A program made the position numbers and the translations under genes. DNA of 64,000 nt from an uncultured Acidobacteriota bacterium (GTDB lineage: Bacteria > Acidobacteriota > Vicinamibacteria > Vicinamibacterales > Fen-181), in assembly GCA_963724775.1 (NCBI GenBank), contig CAVRWB010000016.1, positions 28,815 through 92,814 of the forward strand, in the 5' to 3' direction. The notes under the pieces are model-generated. The model was not told where the DNA came from and searched no databases. It worked only from the letters and a program-made list of their open reading frames with translations. Each line of letters opens with the position of its first letter. Position 1 is the stretch's first letter. Shown here one piece after another: positions 12,607 through 59,205 of the stretch.

Positions 12607-12615
12607 TACGGTTTG

Positions 12616-13630: not shown

Positions 13631-13673
13631 CGGAACGGAGAACTGAGAACGGAGAACTTGGAACTGAGAACTC
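13631..13673. repeat. Degenerate tandem repeat GGAGAACTGAGAACGGAGAACTTGGAACTGAGAAC between the lhr stop and the nei start
   Basis: Read directly from the sequence. It belongs to the AACGGAG / GAGAAC repeat family seen elsewhere in the window. Confidence 0.6.
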
Positions 13674-18458: not shown

Positions 18459-18474
18459 GGGGAATTCTATGATG

Positions 18475-18570
18475 GGATTGACGATTGACGATTGACGAGT
18501 GGCGATTGACGAGTGTGACGGCGACCGTCCCGAATTCGTCAATCATCAGTCGGCAATCGTCATTTGCCGA
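18475..18570. repeat. (GATTGACGA)n-type heptamer/nonamer tandem repeat plus a related TCGTCAATC...GGCAATCGTCATTTGCC segment between the lhr start and the upstream gene
   Basis: gattgacgattgacgattgacgagtggcgattgacgagtgtgacgg. Confidence 0.6.
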
Positions 18571-18984: not shown

Positions 18985-19067
<83 letters not shown>

Positions 19068-19095
19068 GGGCAAGCTGGCGACCTTTCTTGACCGT

Positions 19096-21235: not shown

Positions 21236-21252
21236 GCCGTAAGCCCTGAGCC

Positions 21253-22084: not shown

Positions 22085-22272
22085 ACAGGCGGGACGCCTG
22101 TCCTACGGCCTGCCGCACCGCTGAACAGGCGGCGAGACGCCTGTCCTACGGCCTACCGCACCGACAGGCGAGACGCCTGTCCTACGGCCTACGCCGACAG
22201 GCGACCCTGCCACCGACAGGCGAGACGCCTGTCCTACGGCCTGCCGCACCGACAGGCGGGACGCCTGTCCTA
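22085..22272. repeat. Five to six tandem copies of an about 37-bp unit GACAGGCGRGACGCCTGTCCTACGGCCTRCCGCACC, each with a 7-bp-stem hairpin; no unique spacers
   Basis: Read directly from the sequence. The last copy overlaps the stop codon of the SEDS-PBP gene. Confidence 0.75.
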
Positions 22273-25200: not shown

Positions 25201-25647
25201 GGCATCGAGCTGCGCCCGCCGTCCGCCCAGCCGCTGCCGGAATGTGACCAGCCGTCGGTTCGCCTTCACGTCGGCGTCCGACACCGTGATGGCGCCCAGT
25301 GCGCCGACACTCGGGACGCGCCGCCGCAGATCGCCGCTGCCGTCGGGCGTCGTGAGCCAGGCGGTGATGCGGTCGGCCACGAAGCGGCGCTCGGCGGGGT
25401 CCGCGACGACGCCGTCGAGGACCGGCAGGAGCTGTTCCGCGCGATCGATCGTGTTGATGTCCAGGAGCGGCGTGCCGGCGGTGCTCGCGTTCGCGTCAGC
25501 CGCCTTCGCGCTGAACACCAGCCACACTCCCGCCAGCGACACGAGCGACGCGACGAGGAGCGCCGCGAGTTCGAGCGACGGGGAGCCGCTGCGCCGCCGG
25601 GTGGCGCGGACCGCACGTTCGGCCGCGGTGGTGTGGGTGATACGCAT
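22270..25647 (-). CDS. Natural fusion: SEDS family (RodA/FtsW) peptidoglycan polymerase and class B penicillin-binding protein (transpeptidase)
   Basis: Single uninterrupted 1125-aa ORF. The N-terminal half has about 10 TM helices with SEDS motifs (GHTDLILAVVGEELGFAG; PFLSYGRSS). Then comes a TM anchor and a PBP dimerisation plus transpeptidase domain (SSFK, SCN, KTGTAE). Confidence 0.75.
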   Translation of the reverse strand: MRITHTTAAERAVRATRRRSGSPSLELAALLVASLVSLAGVWLVFSAKAADANASTAGTPLLDINTIDRAEQLLPVLDGVVADPAERRFVADRITAWLTTPDGSGDLRRRVPSVGALGAITVSDADVKANRRLVTFRQRLGGRRAQLDAAGQIRLKPDSTTVTVPLLTPSQLGALRPSLVVRAWRTFRTDLILASALFVAAFYVAWISARARRLSSDPLLLPAVHLLCGVGFAMMISLRDPLRDAALFPRFSQGVVVGLIGLMLVRLVDLQRSQLRRLSYVPLLGAIGLSVLLIIFGSGPGTSDAKVNLLGAQPVEAIRVLVVLFLAGYFANRWELLRSLKEPRLGGAARFGFDVPRLDFVLPVLVGMALILVFFFLQKDLGPALVLACVFLAMYGVARRRLTMVGVGLGLLVSGFLAGYLLGFPHTVVQRVQMWMSPWDNVVRGGDQVAHALWALAAGAVSGTGLGLGDPRLIPAGHTDLILAVVGEELGFAGIAAVVVLFGLVAWRCLRIALRAPGDYTFFLALGLTLGLVLQLALIAAGLLGLMPLTGVATPFLSYGRSSMIANLFAIGMILAIGARAQDAAPKPEFERPALALAGAVAVLLLAALGRAAMVQVVNPNRTLIAPALTVQADGERRFEYNPRLLAVARLIERGTIFDRNGIPLATSRPADLAGHAEDLTKLGVTPAPACGTGGARCYPFGGLTYHLLGDFRTQANWAASNTSFVERDSDARLRGYDDHARVVEVPDARTGAKTRVLRRDLTELIPLLRKRYNPDDESVKRLLARPRDVRLSIDVRMQLKLGEIVKSGVDQAGRKEGAAVVLSGDGDLLAAVSYPWPAAEGSQPTSRNASPEEREAALLDRARYGMYPPGSSFKLVTASAALRKNPALLHQPFTCERLPDGRVGQKIPGWGRPIRDDPADRTPHGTIDLERGLVVSCNAYFAQLGLHIGAPALQETADLYEIPLAPPANPRAVRDLLPFAAYGQGQVLASPLKMARVAATIAGGGAMPQGRWVADETNQRVDPPRPILSAADAQTLARAMREVVLEGTGRSLKGIEPPIAGKTGTAEVQDAPSHSWFVGFAPYGSARQRIAFAVIVEHGGYGASVAAPIAGRIVTTARELGLVQ

Positions 25648-25735
25648 CGAATGTCCTGGGTCAATCCGGTAGGCAGGAGTGCAGTGGGTGCAAGCGGTGC
25701 AGAGAAGCGCCGGGCTACGACGTGCCTACTGTCTG

Positions 25736-30810: not shown

Positions 30811-32951
30811 TCACCGGTTCGAGTCATCGGCGGCCTCGTCGGCCGCCGGATGGACGATGTCCTCGGCGGCGGGCGGTTGGCCGCCGCTCGCCGCGAACCC
30901 CTCGACGAATCGTTCCAGCTCGCGCAGGTTGGAGGCGTCCCGGCCTCCGTCGGCCAGGTCGAGCCCGGCCTTTTCGGCGAGCAGCATCGAGAGCAGCTTG
31001 CCGAAGAGGCTCAGGCCCGCCAGCGGCGCCGCGCCGCCGTCGCCGCCCATCATGAGCATCCGCTCCGGCACCAGCGGCTGCTGGCTGCGCGCCATCTGCT
31101 CGCGACACCAGGTTCAGCGCGAAGAGGCGCGGGTCGCCGTAGGCCCGGATCTTCTTGAGGAACACACCCGCCTCGGCGAGACCCGTCTGCGCGATGCGCG
31201 ACGCCTCGCCGCGGCCGAGCAGCTCGCGCGCGCGGCCCTCGCCGTCCGCCCGCGTCACGTCGCGCTCCGCGAGCCGGCGCGCCTCGGCAAGCTGCGCCTC
31301 GCCGCGGTTGGCCGCGATGGACACATCCACTGCCGTCTGCGTCAGCTCCGTCTGCTTGTCCGCCGCGGCGCGCGCCTCGTTCAGCTCGCGCTGCTTGGTC
31401 GCCGCCTCCTGCTGGCGTGCGTACGTTTCGACCTGCTCGTTGGCCAGCCGCCGCTGCCGCAGCTGGTCGAACAGGCTCTGGATCGGGTCCTGGCCCTTGT
31501 GCGCGGCGTCCAGCTGCGACTCCGGCCGGCCGATCAGCACCGCGACGCAGGTGATGTCGTAGTCGCGGAAGCGGCGTCCGAGTTCCTCGGTGCCGCGGCG
31601 CTGGATCTCCTCGCGGTGCGTCAGCAGGTCGAGCATCTGCGTCGATCTGGGCGACGTCGCGGAAGTACGCCGAGATGATCGGGTCGAGCGTCTGGCTGAT
31701 CAGCCGTCGCACGTCGCCGAACCGCTGCACCACGCGCGGCGCCATCTCGTAGTCGATGTGCAGCACCAGCGAGAGCGGCAGCAGCGGCTCGTAGCCGTCG
31801 GCGGTGATCAGCGCGATGCTCGTGAGGTCCTTGTCGTACTGGTGCTCTTCGGTCATCCCGGTGATCCACCGCAGGACGAAGTTCACCGTCGGCACCAGCT
31901 CCACCTTCAGCGCGTAGGGGTTGAGCGGGTACTTTCCGGGAGGCAGCGGCTTCCGCCAGACGCCGCGGCGGCCGGGCTCCACCTGCTCGCCGTAGCGGAA
32001 CTGCTCGCCCGTCAGGTCCTCGCCCAGGTTGCCGTAGTACGAGACCACCACGCCGACGTAGCCGATCGGGATGACGGTCTTCGGCTCGAAACTCCACCGT
32101 CGCGAACCAGCGGTTGACGAAGTACGTGCCGTCGGTGAGCACCTGGAGCTGCTTGCCGCGCCGGCCGCCGAGCGCGAGCACGGCCTCGGGGTCCTGGAAG
32201 CAGTCGTGGTCCGGCGCGCCGGCCGGCGGCGTGCACCTCGGGCGCGATGACTTCGCCCGACTCGATCGGCGGGCCGTCGTGGATCGTCACGACGCCGATG
32301 TTGTCGCGCGGCGCTGGCCCCCGCGGGGTCGTCGGTCGGCTCGGCCTCGTCGTGGCGAAGCGGCGCGCCCGAGCCGACGACGACCGGATCGAAGCCGCCG
32401 ATGTCGTGCAGCTGCGCCTGCCAGCCGGCGTAAAGCTGGTGGTTTCGCTCGCGGACCGGACCCTGGTACACGCGGTCCTCGGCGACCACGACGAAGAGCG
32501 CCAGGTTGATCGCGTAGACGCCCTCGCGCAGGATGGCGCGCTGGCGGCCGCGCTGGCCGCCGCCCGCGAGGAACGCGGCGGGCGTCCTGGAAGTTGTTGC
32601 ACGCGATGACGCGGCCGAGCGTCTGCACCGGGGCAAGCGGCTCGCCGTCGCGCGAGTAGACGTAGCCGATCTTGCCTTCCGGGATCGACGACCAGCGGCT
32701 CGCGGTGGATCCGGTACTGCCACGGGAAGTAGAAGGCGTGCACGCCGCCGCGCAGGAGGTCGGCCTGGAAGCCGGCCTCGCCGCCGGCCGCCACGATGCG
32801 ACCCTCCTTCAGCGAACCCTTTGCCCGCCCAGAGCTTCTCCACGATGCCGACCTTGTTGTGGGGGATGTAGCGGAAGCCGAGCAGCCAGGACGCGAACAC
32901 CAGGCCGAACAGGGCTTCGGCCAGCCAGATCGCCGCAGTCACGAGCGTCAC
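30811..32951 (-). CDS. Flotillin / SPFH-domain protein (YqiK-like), several apparent frameshifts
   Basis: GTG at 32951 with an AAAGGAGA RBS. Flotillin motifs (RYIPHNKVGIVEKLW, FQADLLRGGVHAFYFPWQYRIHR, LQVLTDGTYFVNRWFATVE, coiled-coil EA-rich C-terminus) lie across at least 4 frames. Confidence 0.65.
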
Positions 32952-33134: not shown

Positions 33135-34527
33135 ATGCACGCGCACATCCTGGTCTTCGAGCCGCCCGGTCAGTCCCTTGCCGACCTGCGCGGCGTCATC
33201 GAGCGGGTTCTTGCGGACTCGGCGGACGTGGAGACGGTCTCCGACGCCTCCGCCTTGCTTCAGCGGGTTCGCCGCGACGCGTCGCTGGACCTGGTCGTGG
33301 TTCCCTATTCGGGGAATGAGGAGGCCGGAGGCCGGCGCGAGCGTGCGGAGCCTGAGGGCCTGCGATGCCGAGTTGCCGATCGTGGCGGTGGCGACGCACG
33401 GCGACGTGAAGCTGGCCGCGGAGGCGGTCAGCGCCGGTGCCACGGACTTCCTCGTGCGCGGCGATCGCCTCGAAGAACGGGTGCGAACCCTGCTCGGAAA
33501 GCTGCGGCGCATCGTCCTGCTGTTGCGGCAGAACCGGTCGCTCGCCGAGCAGAACCGGCAGCTGCGGGGAACTGATGCGGAGCGGTCTCGCCTCGTCGGT
33601 GAGTCGCTGCCGATCCGGGAGGTGCGGGAGCGCATTGCGCGCGTCGCGGTGATTCCGCGCCCCGTGTTGATCCTCGGCGAGCGCGGCACGGGCAAGGAGC
33701 TGGTGGCGCGGGCGATTCACGCCGCGTCGGGGCGAACCGACGGGCCGTTCGTTGCCGTCAACTGTGCGGCGTTTCCCGAAGCCCTGCTCGAGAGCGAGCT
33801 GTTCGGCCACGAGAAGGGCGCCTTCACGGGCGCCGACCGCCTCGTGCCGGGCAAGTTCGAGCAGGCGTCGGGCGGGACGCTCTTCCTCGACGAGATCTCG
33901 CACATGCCGACCGCCTTCCAGCAGAAGATCCTGCGGGTGGTCGAGTACGGCACGTTCGCCCGGGTTGGCGGCACGCGGGACGTGCGGGCCGACGTACGCG
34001 TGGTCGCCGCCAGCAATGCCGACCTCGAGCAGGGCATTCGAGACGGATGGTTCCTCGCCGACCTGTACGATCGCCTCGCGTTCGACGTGGTGCGGGTGCC
34101 GCCGCTGCGCGAGCGGCGGGGCGACGTTCCGATCCTGGCGACGCACTTTCTTCGCGAGTTCCTCCGCGAGGTGCCCGCGCTCGGTGAGAAGCCGTTTGCC
34201 GCGGACGCGATGGCCGCGCTGGAGCGTTACGCGTTCCCGGGCAACGTGCGCGAGCTGAAGACCATCATCGAGCGCGCGGCCTACCGCGACACCACGCAGG
34301 AGATCAACGTCGAGGACCTCGCGCTGCCCCGCGACGCGACCAACGGCGCGGAAGGCACCTTCGAAGAGCGCGTGGCCGCCTACGAACGCCGGCTCGTCGA
34401 GCATGCGCTGGCGGCCGCGGGAGGCAACCAGGCGGAGGCCGCGCGCAGCCTCGGCCTGGCGTATCACCGGTTCCGGTACTACCTGCAGAAAGGCAGGACA
34501 GCGCGGACCTCGGAACGGCGAACGTAG
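33135..34527 (+). CDS. Sigma-54-dependent transcriptional activator (NtrC family) with apparently degenerate receiver domain; apparent frameshift near 33330
   Basis: AAA+ sigma-54 interaction domain (GERGTGKELVARAIH, GAFTGA, ESELFGHEKGAFTGA) and a C-terminal Fis-type HTH. The N-terminal receiver lacks the usual DD pocket and the phospho-acceptor Asp (ILVFEPPG...LDLVVVPYS). Confidence 0.75.
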
Positions 34528-34565
34528 AACGGAGAACCGAGAACTGAGAACGTAGAACGGAGAAG
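34510..34565. repeat. GAACGKAGAAC-type tandem repeats overlapping the last codons and stop of the sigma-54 activator gene
   Basis: ctcggaacggcgaacgtagaacggagaaccgagaactgagaacgtagaacggagaagcg. Confidence 0.6.
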
Positions 34566-34602
34566 CGTCCCCACCTCGCCTCAGCCGCTGGCACTCGGCA
34601 TC

Positions 34603-35145
34603 CTACCTGTTCTGAACGAGATCCGTGATGTGCGCGGGACGGTCGGCAGCTTCGCGCGCCGCCTGCCGCCCCATTTCGATCGCCTCGCGCGTCTCCCAGC
34701 GATCATCCCGGCCGCGCCGCCAGCCGATCCGCTTGAAGAGCTCTCGCATGCCCCCCTCGTCCTTCACGTCGGGCGCGTCCGCGATCTCGCTGACGTGTTG
34801 CAGCTCGTGCCCCAACGCGCCCACCAGGTCGGTGGGGCTGCGGAAAGGATCGACGGTCACGAGCACGTACCGAGCTCCGGGCGCCGAGGAAATCATATTG
34901 GTCTTCCCGATCATCTCGCCTTCAAGCACGCCGAGATGCAGGAACACCACGAGGTCGCTGCGCTCGATGCGCGAGGCGAGCCGCCGGACCGTGGAGGACT
35001 GCGCAACCGCATCCTGGAACAGCTGCAGGCTGCGGGGCTCGAGGCAGCGGATGTGGGTGAACGGAAGCGGCTTGGCGTCAGCAGGTATCGCAAGCGCGGC
35101 AAGGACGAGCGCGGCCAGCGTCAGTGTGCAGAGACGTGCCCTCAT
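34603..35145 (-). CDS. Small secreted protein with HExxH motif (putative zinc metallopeptidase)
   Basis: Signal peptide MRARLCTLTLAALVLAALAIPADA. Contains LGHELQHVSE. Confidence 0.35.
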   Translation of the reverse strand: MRARLCTLTLAALVLAALAIPADAKPLPFTHIRCLEPRSLQLFQDAVAQSSTVRRLASRIERSDLVVFLHLGVLEGEMIGKTNMISSAPGARYVLVTVDPFRSPTDLVGALGHELQHVSEIADAPDVKDEGGMRELFKRIGWRRGRDDRWETREAIEMGRQAAREAADRPAHITDLVQNR

Positions 35146-35661: not shown

Positions 35662-35780
35662 GGTTGGTTGGACGGGAGCGGCGGCCGAACGGTTCGCAGC
35701 TGGTCCAGCAAAGCCGGAGCATTGCGCCACGCCGAGTCCAAACCGCCAGCTTCGCGCGCTGGACGCGCTATGCTCGACTC

Positions 35781-37322
35781 ATGCGCCTTGCTGAACTGGT
35801 CAGCATGTCGAACGGGGTGGCGGGCGTCAGCGGCCGCCTGGACAAACTCGATCGGCTCGCAACGCTTCTCGCGCGGCTCGAACCGGAGGAGATTCCTGTC
35901 GCCGTCGCATTCCTCTCCGGCGCGACTCGCCAGGGACGCATCGGCCTCGGCGCCAGCGTGATCAGGCAGGCGGCTGCGGCCGAGCCCGCTGACGCGCCGA
36001 CCCTCACGCTGCTCGACGTGGACCGCGCGTTCGATGCGATGTCGACCGTCTCGGGGCGCGGCGCCGCCGGGGAGCGCGTGCGGCTGCTGCACGAGATGTT
36101 CGCGCGCGCGACGGTCGAGGAGCGGGAGTTCCTCGTGCGGCTCCTCTTCGGTGAGCTTCGCCAGGGCGCGCTCGAGGGAATGCTCGCCGACGCGGTGGCA
36201 AGGGCCGCGCGCGTGCCGGCGGCCTCGGTCCGCCGGGCCGCGATGCTCGCCGGCGATCTCGGCCGGGTGGCGGCAACGGCGCTGGCCGAGGGCGAAGGGG
36301 GCCTCGCCCGCTTCGCGGTCACGATCCTGTGCCCCGTGCAGCCCATGCTCGCGGACACCGCCGAGGACGTCGGTGCGGCGCTCGATCGCCTCGGCGAGGC
36401 GGCGCTCGAGTACAAGCTCGACGGCGCACGCATCCAGGTCCACAAGGCCGGCGACGAGGTGAAGGTCTTTTCGCGGAACCTGCGCGACGTGACCATCGCC
36501 GTGCCCGAAGTCGTCGCGGCTGTCCGCGCGCTGCCGGCGAGCGACGCGATCCTGGACGGAGAGGTGATCGGGTTCCGGCCGGACGGGGCGCCGCTGCCAT
36601 TCCAGGTCACGATGCGGCGCTTCGGCCGAAAGCTGGACGTCGAACGCCTGCGCTCGGAGATCCCGGTGCAGCCCTTCTTCTTCGACCTTCTGAGGCGCGA
36701 CGGCCAGACCATGATCGATGCGCCGCAAGCGGAGCGATTCGAGCAGCTGCGAGGCATGGTGAGGCCGGAACACGTCGTGCCCCACCTGCGTACCGCTGAC
36801 AGGGGCGAAGCGACGGCTTTCGTGGACCTGGCGCTGACGCGCGGGCACGAGGGCGTGATGGCCAAGGCGCTGGACGCGCCCTACGCGGCCGGCAGCCGGG
36901 GGCAGGCCTGGCTGAAGATCAAGCGGGCGCGGACGCTCGATCTTGCCGTGTTGGCCGCGGAGTGGGGGCATGGACGCCGCCGCGGCTGGCTCAGCAACCT
37001 GCACCTTGGCGCCCGAGACGCGGAGAGCGGCCAGTTCGTGATGCTCGGCAAGACCTTCAAGGGCCTGACCGACGAGTTGCTCGCCTGGCAAACGGAGGCC
37101 CTCCTTCGCCTCGAGACCTCGCGCGACGCGTACACTGTCTTCGTCCGGCCGGAACTGGTGGTCGAAGTGGCGTTCAACGACGTGCAGGAGAGCCCGCAGT
37201 ACCCGGGCGGCCTCGCGCTCCGGTTCGCCCGCGTCAAGCGCTACCGCCCGGACAAGAAGGCGTCGCAGGCAGACACCTTCGCAACCGTCCAGGAAATCTA
37301 CCGAGAGACGACGGGAAAGTAA
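35781..37322 (+). CDS. ATP-dependent DNA ligase (LigB/LigD-ligase-domain type)
   Basis: Adenylation motif I EYKLDGARIQ (Lys). Motifs III, IV and V follow, then an OB-fold and the C-terminal ligase motif VI. There is no frameshift. Confidence 0.8.
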   Translation: MRLAELVSMSNGVAGVSGRLDKLDRLATLLARLEPEEIPVAVAFLSGATRQGRIGLGASVIRQAAAAEPADAPTLTLLDVDRAFDAMSTVSGRGAAGERVRLLHEMFARATVEEREFLVRLLFGELRQGALEGMLADAVARAARVPAASVRRAAMLAGDLGRVAATALAEGEGGLARFAVTILCPVQPMLADTAEDVGAALDRLGEAALEYKLDGARIQVHKAGDEVKVFSRNLRDVTIAVPEVVAAVRALPASDAILDGEVIGFRPDGAPLPFQVTMRRFGRKLDVERLRSEIPVQPFFFDLLRRDGQTMIDAPQAERFEQLRGMVRPEHVVPHLRTADRGEATAFVDLALTRGHEGVMAKALDAPYAAGSRGQAWLKIKRARTLDLAVLAAEWGHGRRRGWLSNLHLGARDAESGQFVMLGKTFKGLTDELLAWQTEALLRLETSRDAYTVFVRPELVVEVAFNDVQESPQYPGGLALRFARVKRYRPDKKASQADTFATVQEIYRETTGK

Positions 37323-37671
37323 GAAACAATCTAAGAAGAGAGACACAGAGACACGGAGGCGACCCCGGGGGAACCCTTCGGGCGGTCGGCGGAGCCGACC
37401 GCCGCCGGCGGGTGGGGGGACGCGCCGCGCGAACACGCCTCCATGCGCCCCGGGCGTGCTCGCTCGGCGCGTCCCGCCTCCCGCCGCCGCGCGCCGATGG
37501 CGCGCGCGAAGGGCGGAGCGGTCGCTCGGCTCTGTGTCTTTTCCGGTCTTCTCTGTGCCTCTGTGCCTCTCTTCTTGATTCGTCAGGTGGTGGGCGGTAC
37601 CTGTGGGCGGAGCAAATCGCCAAATCGCCAAATCGTGAAATCGCCAAATCGCAAAATGGCCAAAATCTCCC
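37323..37671. repeat. Repeat-rich intergenic region: GAGACACAGAGACAC, its inverted complement TCTGTGCCTCTGTGCCTC, and (AAATCGCC)n x6 immediately before the glycyl-radical enzyme start
   Basis: Read directly from the sequence 37330-37370 and 37540-37670. Confidence 0.6.
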
Positions 37672-40073
37672 ATGTCCTTGGTTGTTGAGCCTTCCATCGT
37701 CCGGCCGCACACTCCCGCGACGGCTCGCGTGCGCGCCGGGGCGCAGCGCATCGTCGCGGTGACGCCCGAGCTGTTCGCAGACCGGGCGCTCGCAGCCACC
37801 CGGAGCTGGCGGGAAACCGAGGGGCAACCGCTGCCGATTCGCCGCGCGCGCATGCTCGCGCGGATCCTGGCGGACCATCCCCTCTCCATTCAGGACGGAG
37901 AGGTGATCGTCGGGATGAAGACGCGAAAGCCCCGCGGATCGCCGGTCTTCCCGGAGATCAACTGCGCGTGGGTGGAGCGCGATCTCGACCGGCTGCCCAC
38001 CCGCAGCGACACGCCGTTCTTCGTCGCGGACGAGACCAAGCGCCTCTTGCGCGAGGACGTGTTCCCGTACTGGCGTGGCCGGCAGATCGTGGACCGATTG
38101 ATGGAGGCGGTGCCGCCCGAACAGTGGCGGGCAGACGAGCGCGGCGTCCTGTATCACTACTTCCGCTCGCGGACGATTGGGCACATCAACGCCGGCTACG
38201 ACAAGGTCCTGACGCGGGGGATGGACGGCATCCGCGCGGACGTTCAGCGCGCCCTCGATGCGCTCGACCCGTCCGATCAGGCGACACCCGAGCGCCGCGC
38301 CTTCCTCGAATCTGTCGAAATCGTGTGTGGCGCCGTCGTCGCCTTCGCGCGCCGGCACGCGGAGGCCGCGAGGCGCGCCGCCGCGGCCGAGCCGGATCCG
38401 GCCCGTCGCGCCGAGCTGCTCCGCGTGGCAGACGTATGCGAGCGCGTGCCGGCCTCTCCGGCCCTCTCCTTTCAGGAAGCGCTGCAATCGTTCTGGTTCA
38501 CGCATCTCGTCCTCAACCTCGAGACCGACGGTCACGCGTTCGGACCCGGCCGCTTCGACCAGTACCATCTATCCCTGTTTCCGGCGCAGCATAGACGCGG
38601 GCGACCTGACGCTCGACGAGGCCCAGGAACTCCTCGACCTCCTCTGGCTGAAGTTCGACGAGATCACCCTGGCGAAGGACTCGGGCGAGTCGCAGACGAG
38701 CAGCTCGTACCCGGACTTTCAGAACCTGAACGTCGGCGGGCTCACGCGGGACGGTCGCGACGCGACCAACGAGCTGTCGTTCATGTGCCTGACGGCGCTG
38801 GAGCACGTGCGGCTGCCGCAGCCCGGGTTGTCCGCGCAGATCAGCTCCAAGACGCCGCCAGCCTTCCTGCTGCGCTGCTGTCAGCTGCTTCGCCAGGGCA
38901 TGGGCATGCCGGCGATGTTCAATGCGGACGTGCTGGTGCTGGGGATGGTGAACCGCGGCAAGACGCTGGGAGACGCCCGAGCGAGCAGCCTCAACGGGTG
39001 CGTCGCCGCGTTCTGCGACGGCAAGGATCGCATGGCGTCCAGCGGGTACTTCAACCTGGCGAAATGCCTCGAGCTGGCCCTCAACGACGGCGTGGACCGT
39101 TTGACCGGCGAACAGCTCGGGCCGCGAACCGGCGATCCGCGCGCCTTCTCGTCCTTCGAAGAGGTGGTGACCGCGTTCCGCGCGCAGGTCGCCCACTTCG
39201 CCCACGAGAAGGTCCAGTACGACGACATCGTGCGCGGCGTCTACGCGCGCTGGTGCCCGGTGCCGTTCACCTCCGCGCTCATCGACGACTGCGTCGAGCG
39301 CGGCCTCGACTGGCACGCCGGCGGCTCGCACTACAAGATCGCCACGGTGTCTGGCGTTGCGGTTGGCACCGTCGCGGACGCCCTCTCGGGCATCCGCACG
39401 CACGTCTTCGAAGAGGGGCGGGTCAGCATGGCCGCACTCGTCGACGCGCTCGACCGCAACTGGCAGGGATGCGAGGTCATCCGCCAGGTGCTGGTGAACC
39501 GCACGCCCCATTACGGCAACGACCAGGACGAGGCGGACGACCTGGCCGTCCTCACCCAACGCATCTTCTGCGAGGAGATCGAGCGTCACACCGACCTGCA
39601 GGGCGCCCGATACTGGGTGGACCTGCTTCCCACCACCTCGCACATCGCGCTCGGCGAGGTGACAGGCGCGACGCCAGACGGCCGCTTCGCCGGCACGCCG
39701 TTATCCGAAGGGGTGTCACCCGTGCAGGGCCACGACCGGTCGCGGTCCGACCGCCGCCGCGCACTCGGTCGCCAAGCTCGATCACGCGCGAACCAACGGC
39801 ACGCTCCTGAACCTGAAGATCGACCCGCGCTGCCTGTCGGCGGAGTCGGAGTTGCAGAAGCTCGCCGCACTCATTCGGGGCTACTTCCACCAGGGCGGTC
39901 ATCACGTGCAGTTCAACGTCGTGGATCGCGAGATCCTGCTGGACGCGATGACGCACCCCGAGCAGCACCGCGACCTCATCGTCCGCGTGGCGGGCTACTC
40001 CGACTACTTCGTCCTGTTGAGTTCCGACATCCAGCGCGAGATCCTCTCGCGAACGGAACACGGGCTGCCGTGA
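37672..40073 (+). CDS. Glycyl-radical enzyme of the pyruvate-formate-lyase superfamily, at least 2 apparent frameshifts (about 38560 and about 39750)
   Basis: PFL-like N-terminal and core domains. The C-terminal glycine-radical motif is RVAGYSDYFVLLSSDIQREI. The candidate Cys-loop is LNGCVAAFCDG. No activase gene is adjacent. Confidence 0.7.
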
Positions 40074-40124: not shown

Positions 40125-40817
40125 TTGGGGGAGCCTGCCATGCCGTTGTTTGCCCGATCTGTAGCACGCACTGCCGCAATGTGCCTTGCCGCGGCCGTCA
40201 GCGCAGCCGAGGTCGCCAGCGCGGACACCATTCAGATCGCGAGCGGCGCGCTGCGATTTGGGGTGACCTTCGGCACGCTCGAGATTGCCGGTGACCACGG
40301 ATTCACCATGTTCTCCGCCGTCGACGTCGCGGGCGGCATCTATGCGCCGTGGGAAGTCTGTTCGTCACCCGTCTGCGGGCCGGGCGCGGCCATCCCGTTG
40401 TTCGCCGCCTGGTCGGGAAACGACCTGCCGGGAGTCGCGACGCTGGATGGAAACGTCTACCCACGGCTGGGCAGCTTGAGCGAGGTGCAGGGGGCGGCAG
40501 TCCAGTTCTTCGGGCAGGCGACGGCGCCGCCGCTGGGCGCCAGTTCCTCGGCGGTCGTCACCGCGCCCTTCACCTTCACCGGCTTCTTCATGCAACCGAC
40601 CGGAATCGGCTTCGAGTCGGCGAGGCACGACCTGGTCGGTTCCGGAACGACGACGCTGTGGCTCGAGAAGAACTTCGAGGGGACGACGTGGCGCGCGGTT
40701 GCCAGCCGCTATGAGTTCGAGCCGTTGGCTACGCCGGAGCCCGCGACGGTCGTCCTGCTCGGCTCGGGCCTGGCGCTGGCGTTCGCGCGCCGGCGGCTCA
40801 AAAGCTCGCGGCGTTGA
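40125..40817 (+). CDS. PEP-CTERM sorting-signal protein
   Basis: C-terminal PEPATVVLLGSGLALAFARRRLK matches PEP-CTERM (PEP, TM, basic tail). An N-terminal signal peptide is present. Confidence 0.7.
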   Translation: MGEPAMPLFARSVARTAAMCLAAAVSAAEVASADTIQIASGALRFGVTFGTLEIAGDHGFTMFSAVDVAGGIYAPWEVCSSPVCGPGAAIPLFAAWSGNDLPGVATLDGNVYPRLGSLSEVQGAAVQFFGQATAPPLGASSSAVVTAPFTFTGFFMQPTGIGFESARHDLVGSGTTTLWLEKNFEGTTWRAVASRYEFEPLATPEPATVVLLGSGLALAFARRRLKSSRR

Positions 40818-41547
40818 AAGCCGTCCAGCATCCTAGCGCGAAGACGATCATCCACCGCAGGTACGGGATGGTCTGGAGGCGTGCGATCGACGCGCCCAGT
40901 TCGCGCAGGAAGGCGACGGGCAGGATGAGAAACGCGCCAATCCACGGCCCCTGTGCCCACCACGGCAGGCGCAGCCAGAAGCCGTGGCCGGTGATCAGCG
41001 CGGCAAATGGCGCGCCGGCGGCCATCGGCATGGCGAAGGCGGCCGACGCGTAGCCGCAGACGAGAACGGTTGCGCCGCGCACCCACCACGATCGCGATCC
41101 GCCCGGGCCGGCCAATCGAAGAGCTGCCGCAGCCACGAGCGCCAGCATCGTGCCCGACAACACCGCCGGTGCCGGGTGGCGGACGACGGTGAGGCCGTAC
41201 GCCAGTCCTTCCGTGGTCCAGGAAGAGGCAACGACGAATCCCAGGAAAACCACCGCCCCGGCCAGCGGGTCCATCAGCCAGCCCCGGCCGCCCACCCGGC
41301 CGCCCTTCGACACGACGTACGCGGTCAGCAGGAAGTAGAGAAGCGCGCCGGTGGCGAGGATGACGCGCAGCGGAGAGCCCGCCAGCCAGGATTCGACCGC
41401 GGCGTCGATGACGAGGAGATCGAAGGCAAGGCGAACGGCGAGGCGTCCGGCCGCAGCGGCCCGCGCGCGGGCGCGTGAAGAAGGTGGCCCCGCGGGCATC
41501 GCCAGCAGGGCCTCGTCAGGAGCGTCGGTGGACACGTCCACCATCAT
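40798..41547 (-). CDS. Hypothetical polytopic membrane protein
   Basis: At least 6 hydrophobic helices and no recognisable motif. It is convergent with the PEP-CTERM gene. Confidence 0.35.
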   Translation of the reverse strand: MMVDVSTDAPDEALLAMPAGPPSSRARARAAAAGRLAVRLAFDLLVIDAAVESWLAGSPLRVILATGALLYFLLTAYVVSKGGRVGGRGWLMDPLAGAVVFLGFVVASSWTTEGLAYGLTVVRHPAPAVLSGTMLALVAAAALRLAGPGGSRSWWVRGATVLVCGYASAAFAMPMAAGAPFAALITGHGFWLRLPWWAQGPWIGAFLILPVAFLRELGASIARLQTIPYLRWMIVFALGCWTAFNAASF

Positions 41548-41690
41548 AGAACTAGAGAGAACGTAGAACGTAGAACGTTGAACGTAGAACTGAGAGACGA
41601 GAACCGGTCCGATCAGCTCTCGGTTTACGTTTTCAGTGGTTCTACGTTCTCACTTCTACGTTCTCACTTCTCAATTCGGTCTACTTTCCC
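41545..41690. repeat. (GAACGTAGAAC)n tandem repeats followed by inverted copies GTTCTACGTTCTCACTTCTACGTTCTCAC
   Basis: gaacgtagaacgtagaacgttgaacgtagaactgagagacgagaacc...ttttcagtggttctacgttctcacttctacgttctcacttctc. Confidence 0.65.
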
Positions 41691-42556: not shown

Positions 42557-42809
42557 GTCCCCATGCTCCTTTGTAGTACTGGCCGCGCCTGGGGGGCGAT
42601 CCCGGTGCCGGCCGGTTGAGCTGGTCGCAAGTTTCATGCCTGTGCCGTATCCAGGCAATCTCGGGGAAAAACGCCGTGAAAACGCGGATGGCTCCCGGCC
42701 GCGCCTGTCACAATCGATATCAGCTGTGCAAAAAGGTATGCCCGACGCAAAGGGCCCGTCGGCATGCGCCAGCGGGCCCCTTTTCCGTTCTCCGTCTTCC
42801 GTTCTCCGT

Positions 42810-45258
42810 TTACAGCGTCAGCTTCGCCAGGTTGCCGCCCAGGCGCGGGCCGCCCATGCCGCCCATGGCCGGCATCTGCCCCGGCTGTGGCGCTGTCACG
42901 CCCACCATCGAGTAGATCTCCTCCTTCGTCCAGCCGCCCTTGACGAGGGAGAGGTACATCTGCTGCTTCGCCGCATCCACTGTCTTCTGGCGCGGGGTCT
43001 GCGCGACGTCACCCATGGGCGACCGAACGACCCGCTCCGTCGTCGTCAGCACGATATTGCCTGAACCGCCGAGGGCCTTCTTGAGATCGATGAGCCGCGT
43101 CGCCATCGCCTGCGGCGCGCTTGCTTCGAACTCCACGGACAGCACGACGTTCTTCTCGACGAGCTTCTTGCCGAGCGCCTCGCTGGGCACGGTCGCCATG
43201 CTGGACACGATGAAGCCCTTCTTCGCGTTCTCGAGCAGGTCATCGAGCAGCTTCGCGGAGGGGTTGTGGAACTGCAAGACGAGGCCTGCCGATTCGAACG
43301 CCTTCAACGCCGCCTTCCCGCGGTCGGTCAGGCCGGTGGCCGTGAACCAGGTGCCGTCCGGGCTGAAGACTTCGGTGCGGCCGATGTTCATCAACTTGGC
43401 CGCCACGTCGATCAGCCCGATGTTGCCGTTGAATGCGCTCAGGTCCACGCTGAGGCCGAAGCGCGGCCCCTGCGGACCGCCCATCTGGATCGCGCCGGAC
43501 GGCCCGATCATGATCGCGCCCGACGAACCGCCGGCGGTGGCGAGGTTCAGCGGGGTCATGCGCATGCCGTTGTAGAGGTGCAGGCGGTCGGTCACCACGA
43601 GGTTCACCTGGGTCTCGTTCGCGACATTCACGATTCCCTGGAGCACGAACTGGCCGTTCTTGCGCAGCATCTCGGCGTCGATCTTGGCCGGGTCGTCGCC
43701 GGCGTCATGGTAATCCGGGTGCCCGATGCCACCCGCGGTCATGAGGGCCAGCGACTCGATGCCCTGCTCGATGAAGGCGGAGTAGTCGCTGCCGCCAGGG
43801 CCCGCGGTAGACGTCTCGATGTTCTTGACGACTTCCGGGTCCTGGTTCTTCATGATGACGTCCCAGATCGCCGGGAAGTTGAGGCCGCCGGGGGCGCCGA
43901 TCCGATCGCCGAGGCCCACCATGTCGTTGTTGAAGTTGGTGACGATGTTGTCCAACTTCACGCCGTCCGTCGGGTGCTTCGACCAGGTACTCGGACCCGA
44001 TGAGGCCCATCTCCTCGGCCGCCCAGAGCGCGAAGTAGATCGTCCGCTTCGGCTTGATGGTGCCGGCGTTGGTCGCGACCAGGCGCGCCATCTCCATGAC
44101 CGTCGCGGCGCCCGACGCGTTGTCGTCCGCGCCGTTCATGACGACGCCGTTGCTCACCCCGACGTGATCGAGGTGACCGCCGACGACGATGACCTGCGCC
44201 TTGAGCTTCGGGTCGGTGCCTTCCACCTTGCCGACCACGTTGTGCGAGACGTTGTTCTTCAGCTTGTCGCTGAAGAAGGTCGTCGTCTTGTAGCCGCTCA
44301 CCCGGCCTTTGACCCCGGTCGCCACCGAGTGCGCCTTGCCGTCGCGGATGTCGCGGCGCCACTGGTCCATGCGCGCGGTGAAGCCGCGAGGCGACTCCTG
44401 CGCGTCGCGGAACATCGCGTGCCGGAAGACGCGCTCGCTGACGTCCGTCATGACGAGGAACGGCCGCGTGTAGGGTTCCGCTGGCGCCTGGGCGCCGGCC
44501 ATCATGGCCATGATCTGCGCCTGTGACAGTGCCTGTGGGGCCGCCATCGGGTTGGGCGGCGCGAGCTTCTCTGGTGCGAACAGGAGGATGGCCGCGGCTC
44601 CCTTGTCGTAGGCGGTCTTGATCTTCGCGGCGTCCTTCGACTCGTCGGCCCACGCTTCGTTGTTCTTCGGCGCATCAACGGTCGCTCCGAACATTCCGCG
44701 GGCGGCCGGCGCGTCCTTCGGCGATCCCTTGAAGACGAGCACGATCTTGCCCTTCACGTCCACGCCGGCGTATTCATCGAGCCCCTTGGCGGGTGCCGAG
44801 ATGCCGTAGCCGGCGAAGACGATGTCGGCATCAGCGGCGGCGCCGGCCGTCGACGCGGGGCTCAAGGTGAAGTCGCTGTCGTTGATGTAGAACGCGCGGC
44901 CGTCGACGGACAGCGCGGGGATGCCGGTCGTCCACGGCTGGCCGCTCCCTCGGCCGACCACCGGCACGTCCTGCAGGAAGCCCCCGCTGTCGCCCGCCGG
45001 CTTCAGGCCCCACTCCTTGAACTTCGCGGCGGCCCATTCCGCGGTCTTCTCGTACCCGGGAGTCAGTGAGCGGCGGCCTTCCTTGTCGTCGGAGGCCATG
45101 TAGTCGATGTAGCCCTTGATGACGGTGCCGTCCACGCGGATCGGCGTCGCGCCGCCGACGGCCGGCTTGCCTTTCGACTGCGCGCCGGCGCCGGCCGACC
45201 ACGCGAGAGCCAGGGCGGCGCTGACGGCGAGGGTGCGCCAGCAGGTTCGAGCCTTCAT
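42810..45258 (-). CDS. Peptidase M28 family (PA domain) with large C-terminal extension; apparent frameshift near 43960
   Basis: Signal peptide. M28 zinc-ligand motifs (GGHLDHVG, GADDNASGAATVME, AAEEMGLIGS, then DMVG...GSDYSAF in the second frame). Confidence 0.65.
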
Positions 45259-46884: not shown

Positions 46885-49365
46885 CTACATCGGCTCGCCT
46901 CGCAGCGCGATCACCGGGTCGACCCTCGCCGCGCGACGCGCCGGCAGGTAGCTCGCGAGCAGCGCGATCGATCCGAGGCCGAACGCCGCGACAGCGTAGG
47001 TGAGCGGGTCGAGTGCGCCGACGCCGAAGAGCAGCGTGGACATCAGCCGGGTGAGGCCGGCCGCCGCGGCGAGTCCGAGCACGACCCCGGCGACCGTCAG
47101 CACGAGCCCGTGTCGCACGAAGAGGCGGCTCACGTCGGACACCTGCGCGCCGAGCGCCACACGGATGCCAATTTCTCTCGTGCGCTGCGCGGCGATGTAG
47201 GCGATCACGCCGTAGATGCCGACGATGCCGAGCAGCAGCGCGACGCCGGCCGCCATCGCGAGCATCACCAGCGTGAACGACGTCTGCGCCATCGATTCCG
47301 CGCGGAGCTCCTCGAGCGACCGGACTTCCGCCAGCGGGAGGCTGGGATTCACCGACCAGACCGCCTGCTGGATCTCCTTCAGGAACGTCGGCGATCCCAT
47401 TCGCGCGCTGCGGATCGCGTAGGCCACCGTCCGCCGCGTCGTGAGGCCCTTCTCCCAGAAGTCCTCCATCAGCAGCGGCCAGTAGATCACTTTCGGCGCG
47501 GGGCGGCCGACGCCATCGTCGCGCTCGTCGGCGACGACGCCGACGATCTCGCGCCAGGCGCTGTCCGGCCCCTGGCGGATGCGCTTGCCGACCGCCGCGG
47601 CCGGCGAGGCGAAATACTCCCGGGCGAAGTTCTCGCTGACGACGGCGACCTTCGCCAGGTTGAAGCTGTCGGCCCATGTGATTGTGCGGCCCGCCAGCAG
47701 CCGGTTGCCCATCGTCTCCGTGTAGCCGGGGCCGACGAACTTGAAGCGGCGGATGGGCGGGATGCGGCCGGGCGGGCCCGGGCGCTCCTCCACGAAGATC
47801 GGGTCGTTGCTGTCGTGACCGTCCATCGTGATGGCCGAGGACAGGCCGACCGACGCCACGCCGGGGACGTGCGCGATGCGCTGCGCGATCTGCTCGTGCA
47901 TCCGCGCGCTCGCGTCGTTCTCCTTGACGAGCGCCTCGGGGATGGTGACGCGCAGGGTCAGCACCTCCTCCGGCCTCGTGAACCCGGGCTGCACCTGCCG
48001 CATCGCCTGGAAGGTGCGGATCATCAGCCCCGAGCCGATCAGCAGGACGACCGCCAGGGCGACCTCGGCGATCACGAGCGCGCTGCGCGCGCGGTGGCGT
48101 TCGCGGCCGTCGCTCGAGCCGCGGCCGCCTTCCTTGAGCGCGGACGCCAGCCGCGGGCGCGCGAAGCGCAGCACGGGAATGAGGCCGAAGAGGACACCCG
48201 CGAGGAGCGAGATGCCCAGCGTGAAGGCCAGCACGACGGGGTCGATGCCGATCTCCTCCAGGCGCGGCAGGTCCTTCGGCCCGATTGCCGCGAGCAGGCG
48301 GATGCCGGCCGCGGCGAGCCCGAGGCCGGCGAGACCGCCGAGGAGGCCGAGGGCGAGGCTCTCGGACAGCAGTTCGGAGGCCAGCCGCCCCCAGCTCGCG
48401 CCGAGCGCCGAGCGGATGGCCAGCTCCTGCTGTCGCCCCTCGGCGCGCACGAGAAAGAGGTTGGCGACGTTGGCGCAGGCGATGAGCAGCACGATGCCGA
48501 CGGTGCCCACGAGGACCCAGAGCATCGGGCGGACGTCGCCGACGAGGTCGTCGGCGAACGGCCGGACGAGTGGTCCCATGCGGATCTCCTCGAACATCTT
48601 CCGCGTGAACCCGGGCGGCAGCGGGAAGCGCTCCATCGACCAGCGGGAGCATCCGCGCGATGTCGCGCGTTGGCCTGCGCGATCGTGACGCCGGGCTTGA
48701 GGCGGGCGACGGCCTGGTAGCTGAAGTTGCCGACGAACATCTCCGCGCGGTTGAAGCGGAACGGCAGGAGCAGCGCCGGCTTCTGGTTGAGGAAGCGGAA
48801 CTCGGCCGGCAGCACGCCGATGATCTCGTTCGGCTTGCCCTCGACCGATCAGCGTCTGGCCGACGACGTCGCGGGCTGCCGCCGAACTGCTGCTGCCAGT
48901 AGCCGTGCGTCAGCATCACCCGCTCGGGGCTGCCGCGGCGAGTCGTCCTCGGCCGTGAACCGGCGGCCGAGGATCGGCTGCACGCGCAGGGCGGGCAGCG
49001 TGGAGTCGGTCACCATCAGCGCCTCGACCTTCTCGGGCTCGCCGCGGCCGGTGACCGAGACCGAGCCGTTGTCCCACAGGCCGAGCTGCTCGAAGACGCG
49101 GTTCTCCTCGCGGTAGGTGAGGTAGGTCGCCGGCCACTGGTTCAGCAGCGGGATGTTCAGGCCCGGGCGCCGTGTGCCACAAGCCCACCAGCCGCTCGGG
49201 CTGATCGAACGGCAGCGGCTTGAGCAGCACCGCGTAGACGACGCTGAAGATCGCGGTGTTGGCGCCGATGCCGACCGCGAGCGTGATGATGGCGACGGTG
49301 GTGAACAGCGGCGCGCGCAGCAGAGCGTGCGTGACGCGTCGGAACCTGGAGAGGAAAGGCGGCAT
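46885..49365 (-). CDS. ADOP-family duplicated FtsX/MacB-type ABC transporter permease; apparent frameshifts
   Basis: Two FtsX permease modules, each preceded by a MacB-like periplasmic domain. Ends ...[16 protein letters not shown]. No ATPase gene is adjacent. Confidence 0.75.
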
Positions 49366-53487: not shown

Positions 53488-53820
53488 CGCCGGATGCTCG
53501 TGCGCATGACCGCAATACACCGTGTGCTGGCGCGGCACACCTGCTGCTGCGCACGGTTTCCGCTGGTAGGGCCCGCCGCGATTACGAAGTTGACGGGGGG
53601 CCTCCACTCCTGTGATCACCGGCAGCGCCCTCGTCCGGCCGGTCCTTCCAACTGCCGCACGAATCCGTGATCTGGGCCGGGTACCAGTCCTGCATTGGTA
53701 CGAGGCGTCGGAACCATGTGACGGGCTCGGGCACGCAATGCCCCGCGTCTCGAATTCGCACACGGCTCCAGGTTCGTGCACCCGTTTCCGCGTCGCAACC
53801 TCCCACGAAGGGGCGCTACC

Positions 53821-54663
53821 ATGCGTACATCCAAGTTCGTCGTATTCGCGTTGTTCACGCTGCTCGTCTCCGTGTCCGCGCGGCCCGCCGCGGCGCAAGT
53901 CAAGCAGGCGACGCCACAGCTCGCGATCCAGGCGGCGTACGCCGACCTGACGGCCAACCAGCTGCTCATCACCGGCCAGCAGTTTGGCGAACGGCCGGCC
54001 GTCGTTCTCGATGGAATCCCGCTCGCCGTGACGTTCAGCGACCCGCAGCAGATCGTGGCGACGCTGCCGAGCGGCGCAGCGGACCACCCGGGCACGTACC
54101 GGCTGATCGTCTCGCGCGGCCGCGGCGACACGCAGTACGACGTCTTCGCCGTGACAGTGGGCGTCGCCGGGCCGACGGGCGACAAGGGCGATCGGGGCGA
54201 TCCCGGCCCCGCGGGGCCCGAGGGGTTGAGGGGAGAGGCCGGGCCGGCGGGCGCGCCGGGGCCGCGAGGGCCGGAGGGCCCCGTAGGGCCGATGGGACCG
54301 GCAGGGCCCGCAGGCCCCAAGGGCGAACCGGGCGGAGCCGCGGACGCCGGCGTGACGGTATTCCTCACAACGGGCGCATGCGGCGAGACGGTGGGCGTCC
54401 TGTCCACGGAGGACCACTGCGACATCCGGGTGTCGCAGTTCGCGTTCGGTCAGGACACTGAGGGCAGCGTGGTCGTCACGGCGTCGTTCCCGGCCGCGAG
54501 TTGCGCGGAGGGAAGCACCGTGGTCAATGTGCAGTACATTCCCGGGTTCAACGAGTTCTACGGCCCCACGGGCAAGCTGACCAGCGTCAGCTACGAGACG
54601 CGCTGGCAGTGCTCGACGCCGAGCCCGTACCAACCGGCCGGCCGGCTGATGAAACTGCAGTAG
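53821..54663 (+). CDS. Secreted bacterial collagen-like (GXY-repeat) protein
   Basis: Signal peptide [26 protein letters not shown]. Has 18 consecutive G-X-Y triplets ([56 protein letters not shown]), flanked by a globular N-terminal domain and a Cys-containing C-terminal domain. Confidence 0.7.
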
Positions 54664-59069: not shown

Positions 59070-59205
59070 CGTAGCACTGCCGTGACGGACTCGAAACCTC
59101 GACCGTTTGACCTTCGGACCGATCGTGTCTAGCATGCTGCTTCCCGGTTGCTCCTCGCGAGGCGAACGCGACGGGCGCGGGCCGCGGGCATCGAAAGGAC
59201 TTCTG

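Follow-up and report, generated by a model that had tools for sequence, protein, structure and literature searches.

A HypD-related glycyl radical enzyme with a glutamate-less cysteine loop in an uncultured Vicinamibacterales bacterium

We analysed a 64,000-nucleotide (nt) stretch of contig CAVRWB010000016.1 (hereafter the window) from an uncultured Acidobacteriota bacterium of the order Vicinamibacterales. It carries a gene for a glycyl radical enzyme (GRE) of the pyruvate formate-lyase (PFL)-like superfamily, whose catalytic cysteine loop has no glutamate two residues past the cysteine. The Glu-less loop is genuine and sets a clade apart. The protein lies outside the classes of trans-4-hydroxy-L-proline dehydratase (HypD), glycerol and 1,2-propanediol dehydratases (GD/PD), PFL and the CXE eliminases and isomerases as now defined, because the residues that define these classes were tested and not found. 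Judged from its sequence, its most probable mode of action is that of HypD, with a related imino acid as substrate. As the best explanation of the locus as a whole, held with somewhat better than even confidence, we propose that it encodes a functional, presumably oxygen-sensitive radical enzyme.

The region 37323-40073 comprises the spacer 3′ of an ATP-dependent DNA ligase gene (35664-37322; NF002868, 715 bits) and one long gene (Table 1). Its three-frame translation gave a single PFL-like protein whose frame moves by +1 twice, near 38567 and 39742. Deletion of the A at 38567 restored the DQYLYP motif, common to PD/GD and the clade, and deletion of the G at 39742 restored the GPTA...KLDH motif of GREs. 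Over its full length, the repaired 799-residue protein shares 96% identity with the intact 799-residue homologue P0001. It matched the Pfam PFL-like domain (PF02901) with E=2e-206 and 688 bits over model positions 12-647 of 647, and the Gly_radical domain at residues 678-780 (E=1.3e-35). The NCBIfam subfamily TIGR01774 was assigned with 709.7 bits, over its cut-off of 678.2, and all NCBIfam equivalogs, including HypD, CutC, PFL and the sulfonate enzymes, scored under their cut-offs. A regular-expression search near the C terminus matched the complete glycyl fingerprint, RVAGYSDYFVLLSSDIQREILSR (residues 771-793), defined as RVxG[FWY]x6-8[FL]x4Qx2[IV]x2R (PMC13450708). The AlphaFold2 (AF2) model of P0001, with a predicted TM score (pTM) of 0.79, superposed on the GD/PD/HypD structures 1R8W, 5I2G and 6VXC with TM scores of 0.82-0.84. 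We had aimed at the active-site geometry but used the model for fold assignment alone, because its core loops (336-349, 416-458 and 652-712) had predicted local distance difference test (pLDDT) values below 50. The fingerprint, the thiyl cysteine and the PFL-like domain with its ten-stranded barrel fold are all present, and the protein belongs to the PFL-like GRE superfamily; of the features that define this superfamily, only a cognate activase has no gene in the window (see below).

The loop LNGCVAAFCDG aligned without gaps to SGCVETGCFG of HypD, IIGCVEPQKPG of GD and IIGCVEPQVPG of PD. Cys443 coincided with the thiyl cysteines of HypD (Cys434), GD (Cys433) and PD (Cys438), and Ala445 lay opposite Glu436 of HypD; the CXE motif, with Glu two residues past the catalytic Cys, thus reads C-V-A. 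All of the 120 best database matches (70-96% identity, as clusters at 90% identity; few carry taxon labels, and those mostly Vicinamibacterales or Acidobacteriota) have GCVA, a conservation which argues that the Glu-less loop is not a product of decay. Six relatives at 65-67% identity, from metagenome-assembled genomes (MAGs) labelled Desulfobacteraceae, Aminicenantes, Anaerolineales, Eubacteriales and Acidobacteriota, have GCVA or GCVS. The CXE glutamate hydrogen-bonds the substrate in GRE 1,2-eliminases and isomerases. As reviewed in June 2026 by the Drennan and Andorfer groups (PMC13450708), the six C-O eliminases, CutC, the C-S lyases and the three isomerases all keep CXE, the CC pair occurs only in PFL and TdcE, and the characterised GREs without the glutamate are PFL and the X-succinate synthases; no characterised GRE listed there has the loop found here. 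Other uncharacterised GRE clusters also lack the glutamate, and the feature is unusual, not unique, in sequence space.

These results confirm the central observation of an earlier note, made from the letters of this DNA, whose interpretation they support in part; it had described a PFL-superfamily enzyme of about 800 residues with a canonical RVAGYSDYF glycyl radical motif and a loop with neither the GCVE glutamate nor a CC pair. The alignment with GRE families that the note proposed places Ala445 where the CXE glutamate would be. Canonical PFL or GD active-site residues after frame correction, which the note named as the outcome that would overturn its view, did not appear: the Glu and CC residues are absent from the corrected protein.

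We placed the HypD residues known from the crystal structure and from mutagenesis (PMC7077986) on 126 sequences, the 120 homologues and the six distant relatives. Cys443 was invariant in all 126. The positions of HypD Arg156, His160, Ser334, Phe340, Tyr450 and Thr645 were likewise invariant, and that of Asp339 held Asp or Glu. In our protein, the equivalents of R156, H160, S334, D339, F340, Y450 and T645 are Arg167, His171, Ser343, Asp348, Phe349, Tyr459 and Thr654. The position of HypD Asp278 was His (His288) in 126/126 sequences and that of Glu436 was Ala or Ser in 126/126 (Ala445 here; Ser in some distant members). Thr437 and Gly438 of HypD, positions 446 and 447 here, were replaced by Ala, Cys or Gly and then by Phe or Tyr. 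In HypD, Asp278 is the proposed acid/base and Glu436 positions the leaving hydroxyl; both are strictly conserved, and the D278N and E436Q variants are inactive (PMC7077986). The alignment shows that the residues of the radical relay and the HypD-like cradle for the carboxylate and ring have been kept.

HypD of C. difficile (6VXC/6VXE) was the best sequence match (E=3.5e-199, residues 26-796, 667 bits), and the bona fide HypD of the related locus L004 is ~42% identical. The two enzymes share their length, the Gly loop, the second loop cysteine (GCVxxxC), all seven substrate-binding residues and proline/hydroxyproline gene contexts, sometimes adjoining HypD itself. They differ in that the essential Glu436 and Asp278 of HypD are Ala and His, that the Glu-less sequences form a separate monophyletic clade, and that the score against the HypD equivalog NF043068 was 766.8 bits, compared to a cut-off of 1100. 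The B12-independent GD/PD enzymes (1R8W, 5I2A, 9RCO) showed nearly the same similarity as HypD (643-647 bits), were the top Foldseek matches of the AF2 model, and share the strand ...GH(A/S)(F/I)xPGRFDQYLYP..., including a His at the HypD Asp278 position. Their two histidines (His164, His281) are present in our protein, whereas their CXE glutamate (Glu435) and Asp447, which flank the diol, are both Ala; the roles of these four GD residues are drawn in part from PDB 1R9D. Their pocket Phe is replaced by a HypD-like Ser, and no microcompartment or diol-metabolism genes lie near the GRE gene in the window.

More distant are HpyG and HpzG, the N-methyl-hydroxyproline dehydratases, and HplG, a hydroxy-D-proline isomerase (8ID1, 8IOF, 7VUA; 356-501 bits). 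They have the same fold and act on other hydroxyproline isomers, so that the superfamily diversifies by isomer, but all keep a CXE glutamate hydrogen-bonded to the substrate hydroxyl. PFL and TdcE share the Pfam domains and the glycyl radical domain. Our protein differs from them in having a single loop Cys followed by Val instead of a Cys-Cys pair, in its lack of a fermentation context, and in its TIGR01255 score of 192, far from the cut-off of 994. The X-succinate synthases TutD and MasD reached only 284-293 bits, compared to 667 for HypD, which is no close similarity to BssA or MasD; no small-subunit-like genes of the X-succinate synthase type adjoin the GRE gene, although no dedicated search for them was made.

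In a neighbour-joining tree, the Glu-less sequences formed one clade, with the group of P0121 (CVE/Tyr) and then canonical HypD (CVE/Asp) as the nearest groups. P0121, found in a library of 1.8 billion proteins clustered at 50% identity, was the nearest representative; it is 46% identical, keeps the Glu and has Tyr at position 278. On this tree, the Glu-less sequences appear to be an uncharacterised, widespread and monophyletic clade of soil bacteria, sister to HypD and the small GCVE/Tyr group. Literature searches on Acidobacteria/Vicinamibacter, 3-hydroxyproline, and ornithine cyclodeaminase with glycyl radical yielded nothing specific to the clade.

The other genes of the window, for signalling, cell-envelope, peptidase and DNA-repair functions, are uninformative on function. 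The related loci were more telling. L004 carries an ornithine cyclodeaminase (OCD)/mu-crystallin gene, an activase gene, a canonical hypD (GCVETG, Asp278) and then the Glu-less GRE gene in tandem. In L021, the HypD paralogue and the Glu-less GRE each have an activase of their own, and the locus also encodes an AcnX protein of the cis-3-hydroxy-L-proline dehydratase type and a branched-chain amino acid-type ABC transporter. In L020 we found an enolase-type cis-3-hydroxy-L-proline dehydratase (521 bits, equivalog cut-off 500), with a PutP-like symporter upstream and a Pro_racemase-family gene, a DAO-type FAD oxidoreductase and a Pyr_redox_2-family oxidoreductase downstream. In L023, the GRE and activase genes are followed by one for a Pro_racemase-family protein with a Cys/Cys pair. 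In L008, a Pro_racemase-family protein (best match trans-3-hydroxy-L-proline dehydratase, under the cut-off) and an OCD-family enzyme are encoded divergently from the GRE-activase pair. A pyrroline-5-carboxylate (P5C) dehydrogenase gene (727 bits, cut-off 660) adjoins the GRE gene in L018 and L019, and L010 has an amino-acid permease. An OCD-family gene lies near the GRE gene in 11 loci and belongs to three OCD subfamilies. All nine loci labelled Acidobacteriota/Vicinamibacterales have an OCD-family ‘cyclodeaminase’, together with a VioD/GntC-like pyridoxal phosphate (PLP) enzyme, and four of them (L011, L016, L022, L024) a DedA protein. Because the HypD pocket is kept and proline/hydroxyproline neighbourhoods recur in independent lineages, a hydroxyproline-type imino acid is the best-supported reading of the predicted substrate. 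The novel substrate class suggested in the earlier note was probably too strong a term, considering the retained carboxylate and ring residues and these neighbours.

We also considered ectoine or hydroxyectoine as the substrate, based on the EutC-like score of the neighbouring cyclodeaminase, and dropped it after the Pro_racemase, cis-3-hydroxy-L-proline dehydratase, AcnX and P5C dehydrogenase neighbours had been found. L004 and L021 are two distant genomes that hold both HypD and its Glu-less paralogue, in L004 in tandem behind one activase, and they form a natural pair for comparative biochemistry. A multi-pass membrane protein of 241-249 residues, without a Pfam or NCBIfam match (40798-41547, minus strand), adjoins the GRE in nine loci (window, L001, L002, L011, L015, L016, L022, L024, L026), either downstream or divergently upstream, and may be a substrate transporter. 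Solely for the hydroxyproline theme, we also mention an ORF (open reading frame) at 53722-54663 (plus strand) with a collagen triple-helix repeat (Pfam E=2e-9).

A tblastn search of the whole window with two GRE activases, from L004 and L005, returned nothing better than E=0.14, in agreement with the earlier note, which had seen no activase on either side of the gene. The syntenic contig L001 and the 91%-identical contig L002 (assembly GCA_024640805.1) have none either, and share the gene order ligase, GRE, PEP-CTERM protein, membrane protein. The note had also called the enzyme an orphan, which fits the locus in this lineage but not the clade. In 10 of 23 non-redundant related loci, a 303-343-residue radical S-adenosylmethionine (SAM)/ferredoxin protein, the activase, is encoded directly downstream of the GRE (e.g. 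L005-L007). A close homologue of the activase also occurs on the contigs of many further GRE homologues, and the two NCBI activases that we looked up are both adjacent to a GRE in their assemblies. Among the best 120 hits, such contig sharing was confined to lineages with an adjacent activase, with none for the 7.04-Mb chromosome of P0032. Activation in trans is established for GREs, as for TdcE by the PFL-activating enzyme (PFL-AE). We infer that the activase is encoded in trans in the window lineage and adjacent to the GRE in many relatives. A B12-binding radical-SAM gene, the neighbour of the GRE in L003, had no significant tblastn match in the window and is not conserved in the other loci.

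The alignment with L002 revealed exactly two coding indels, both 1-nt insertions in the window. We surveyed frame breaks by calling proteins on L001 and searching them against the window with tblastn; several matched in two to four different frames, and at least six other window genes are broken in the same way (Table 1). The break density of the GRE gene, two in 2.4 kb, is similar to this background. The orthologues in L001 and L002 are intact, and the dN/dS of the repaired gene is 0.12 versus L002 and 0.09 versus L001, a lineage without an adjacent activase. Long-read MAGs with MFD... labels make up many of the related genomes, an origin consistent with indel-prone assembly. Considering the intact orthologues (96% identity), a dN/dS of ~0.1 and the other genes broken alike, the two frameshifts appear to be generic assembly indel errors and not gene decay. 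The frameshifts mentioned in the earlier note are therefore present but not specific to the GRE. Pseudogene calls in this window need read support, since the assembly is indel-prone.

We propose, as a fairly probable reading, that the protein is a HypD-like GRE with His288 as acid/base and an isomer or derivative of hydroxyproline as substrate, that its frameshifts are artefactual and that its leader is ordinary. A radical-SAM activase would install the glycyl radical on Gly774, from which the radical would move to Cys443. The Cys443 thiyl radical would then take a ring hydrogen from a proline-like imino acid held by the Ser343/Tyr459/Thr654 triad and stacked on Phe349, with His288 as the proton shuttle in place of HypD Asp278/Glu436. 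The replacement of Glu by Ala would free space, so that another face or position of the ring might bear the leaving group; residues 446 and 447 are also changed. The enzyme would thereby remove a ring substituent, with water as the likeliest, from an isomer or derivative of hydroxyproline other than trans-4-hydroxy-L-proline or in addition to it. The product would be a pyrroline carboxylate; in genomes that link the respective genes to the GRE, an OCD/mu-crystallin-type enzyme could reduce it or P5C dehydrogenase oxidise it.

Several points weigh against this proposal. The acid/base role of His288 is predicted from sequence alignment, the AF2 core being unreliable, and the choice of substrate is likewise predicted. 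The window contains neither proline/hydroxyproline genes nor an activase, and the function is therefore transferred from relatives at 65-77% identity. Much of the OCD/PLP linkage in Vicinamibacterales could reflect synteny by descent, as these genes lie on the opposite strand or in other transcription units. Neither insertion in the GRE gene falls in a homopolymer, so that a very recent real inactivation keeps some small probability.

This last point would favour a decaying pseudogene, with real frameshifts and the missing activase as the mark of a relic in an aerobic soil bacterium. Two breaks within 2.4 kb, a 64-kb window free of an activase, and syntenic relatives that also lack an adjacent one would all fit such a relic. 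Nevertheless, we regard it as very improbable: at least six other genes are broken at similar density, the L001 and L002 orthologues are intact with low dN/dS, every catalytic motif is intact, and GREs can be activated by a non-adjacent activase. A serious rival is that a functional enzyme might still be isofunctional with HypD, that is, a trans-4-hydroxy-L-proline dehydratase with re-wired acid/base chemistry (His288 and no loop Glu). Among equivalog models and PDB entries alike, HypD matches best, and all contacts to the carboxylate and ring of hydroxyproline are kept. Moreover, the neighbours in L008, L020 and L023 cover 3-hydroxyproline isomers and epimerisation, which would leave 4-hydroxyproline to the GRE; a P5C dehydrogenase adjoins it in two loci, and the JGI automatic names of several homologues are trans-4-hydroxy-L-proline dehydratase. 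We nonetheless consider this identity unlikely, as 767 bits is far under the equivalog cut-off and both residues whose conservative mutation kills HypD are changed. L004 and L021 hold canonical HypD too, which argues for different substrates and against simple redundancy.

More unlikely still, in our estimate, is that the clade carries out other radical chemistry, such as isomerisation, C-C or C-N cleavage, or a reaction of a non-hydroxylated imino acid, and that its hydroxyproline-like pocket is only ancestral. Every characterised eliminase and isomerase keeps CXE, the characterised GREs without the glutamate do other chemistry, and the paired D278H/E436A change is invariant across phyla. However, similarity to the eliminases is far higher (667 bits, compared to 165-293 bits for PFL and the X-succinate synthases), the substrate-binding residues of HypD are strictly kept, and the imine reductase and dehydrogenase neighbours fit an elimination product. 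We thus retain the HypD-like enzyme with His288 as acid/base. A bolder proposal, to which we give somewhat less than an even chance, is that the clade with GCV[A/S] and His288 represents a new catalytic solution among GREs. On this view, the clade would add a seventh enzyme to the C-O eliminases or open a new type of reaction, on a hydroxyproline isomer or related imino acid as yet unassigned to any GRE, e.g. cis-4-hydroxy-D- or -L-proline, with His replacing the Asp/Glu pair. The clade is widespread in soil Acidobacteriota, and if the proposal holds, this would point to unrecognised anaerobic hydroxyproline catabolism in bulk soils and to frequent activation in trans by a non-adjacent activase.

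GRE reaction classes are assigned largely by Cys-loop motifs, and a CXE-less sister clade of HypD with a hydroxyproline pocket would, if it holds eliminases, run against the rule that all eliminases keep CXE. The change of Asp278/Glu436 to His/Ala with the pocket kept is a clean natural experiment on proton transfer in GRE eliminases. Its members are frequent among Vicinamibacterales and further lineages of soils and sediments, not among gut anaerobes, and may therefore be a sign that hydroxyproline-rich proteins of plants and animals are turned over anaerobically in soil. The clade is a well-delimited target for GRE enzymology, substrate discovery and the study of anaerobic hydroxyproline metabolism in soil. 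Uncharacterised GRE clades are numerous, and the oddities specific to this window (frameshifts, repeats, missing activase) are mostly ordinary.

The 350 bp upstream of the gene represent a genome-wide style of intergenic DNA and not a dedicated regulator of the GRE. Behind the ligase gene lies an imperfect palindrome with AGAGACAC in 2.5 copies at 37339-37358 and its inverted partner CTCTGTGC, also in 2.5 copies, at 37551-37570. Its 32-nt arms (37333-37364 and 37545-37576) are 84% complementary, and the GC-rich core contains an inner 37-nt hairpin (37403-37439/37453-37489). The predicted minimum free energy is -201.6 kcal/mol (z=-7.5), and none of 100 shuffled sequences was as stable. Conservation in L001 and L002 extends to the arms but not to the core sequence, which drifts; the palindrome has no T-run, and its arm has no second copy in the window as a dispersed repeat. 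The sequence suggests that it is probably a T-less terminator or insulator of the ligase gene. An Rfam scan of the whole window at gathering thresholds gave no family, which argues that the structured region is not a known riboswitch or leader.

Next to the palindrome, a promoter-like block is conserved in the alignment of the window, L002 and L001, and a similar TTGATC...TAGCGT block precedes the GRE in seven loci (L011, L015-L017, L022, L024, L026). A generic scan of 37200-37750 for sigma-70 promoters and terminators made no calls, and conservation is what points to a candidate promoter here. The -10 box reads TACCTG in the window and TACTGT in both L001 and L002, so that the additional C at 37601 probably represents one more 1-nt insertion error. 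Between this box and the ATG, the 8-mer array has 24 nt more in L002, whereas L001 lacks it and has its ATG 6 nt past the -10 box; the L001 sequence suggests a GRE transcript that is leaderless or has a very short leader. Considering this variation, the array is a recent 5′ leader repeat of variable copy number and not a conserved regulator. The earlier note had described a repeat-rich leader. Its tandem repeats and their inverted complement exist beyond chance, but they are not GRE-specific: across the window, arrays of period 7-9 and 3.5 or more copies number 18, compared to ~0.9 in Markov-shuffled sequence, and L001 has no array at this place. Both the frameshifts and the short tandem arrays of the window are therefore to be read as properties of the assembly or genome, not as gene-specific signals.

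Table 1. Positions of the GRE gene, its upstream elements, other frame-broken genes and short tandem arrays in the window, and of GRE genes in two related loci
Sequence	Feature	Positions	Strand	Details
Window	GRE gene	37672-40073	+	PFL-like glycyl radical enzyme, 799 aa after removal of two insertions
Window	GRE segment 1	37672-38566	+	Residues 1 to ~298, with Arg167, His171, His288; frame 1 translation, tblastn, residue mapping
Window	Frameshift 1, extra A	38567	+	Inside ..DQY/LYP..; L002 without extra A
Window	GRE segment 2	38568-39741	+	Ser343, Asp348, Phe349, Cys loop, Tyr459, Thr654
Window	Cys loop LNGCVAAFCDG	38990-39019	+	Cys443 at 38999-39001, Ala445 at 39005-39007
Window	Frameshift 2, extra G	39742	+	Inside ..HDRS/GPTA..; L002 without extra G
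Window	GRE segment 3, glycyl radical domain	39743-40073	+	RVAGYSDYF 39984-40010, Gly774 39993-39995, stop 40071-40073
Window	Imperfect palindrome, 244 nt	37333-37576	+	Starts 11 nt past ligase stop codon (37322)
Window	Promoter-like element	37575-37603	+	-35 TTGATT 37575-37580, 17-nt spacer, -10 TACCTG 37598-37603
Window	8-mer array, 6.5 copies of CAAATCGC (=AAATCGCC)	37613-37664	+	Between -10 box and ATG; Tandem Repeats Finder (TRF) score 76, 84% matches
Window	Frame-broken gene, Band_7	30862-31856		tblastn with L001 proteins
Window	Frame-broken hypothetical gene	32298-32821		tblastn with L001 proteins
Window	Frame-broken sigma54 activator	33135-34884		tblastn with L001 proteins
Window	Frame-broken MacB/FtsX permease	47649-49365		tblastn with L001 proteins
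Window	Hybrid histidine kinase, apparently split over overlapping ORFs	57444-59213 and 56783-57745		Inferred from Pfam domain order
Window	Lhr helicase, ORF apparently with C-terminal part of protein only	15149-18500		Inferred from Pfam
Window	7-9-nt array sites, part 1	1578-1606, 8101-8179, 9685-9747, 10782-10869, 12613-12794, 13633-13672
Window	7-9-nt array sites, part 2	18476-18512, 18987-19072, 21176-21261, 34513-34564, 41558-41677, 42783-42810
L004	Canonical hypD and Glu-less GRE genes	7348-12427
L021	Canonical hypD and Glu-less GRE genes	1904-4255 and 10001-12355		Paralogues in the same neighbourhood

Most of the window arrays are intergenic, and several form inverted pairs just past stop codons, resembling terminator hairpins without T-runs. 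The AAATCGNN unit of the 8-mer array recurs at 1579-1610, and GAACGGA-like heptamers recur at at least four sites of the window. Related Vicinamibacterales loci have other units upstream of the GRE: CCTGAGCC in L014, GGAGAGTGA in L008 and CACAAAG... in L015 and L026. An esterase-like ORF of ~1.7 kb (10726-12606) is flanked by AGTCAACGG in about ten copies and by its reverse complement in about 20 (the sites starting at 10782 and 12613), a very large inverted pair around a whole gene. We know of no description of such an array-rich genome style.

Elsewhere in the window, a 1151-codon ORF (22270-25725, minus strand) combines an FtsW/RodA/SpoVE domain (residues 249-605) with a penicillin-binding protein (PBP) transpeptidase domain (873-1141). 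This could be a true SEDS-bPBP fusion or else a read-through produced by an indel; homologous long ORFs are present in L011, L012, L016, L022 and L024.

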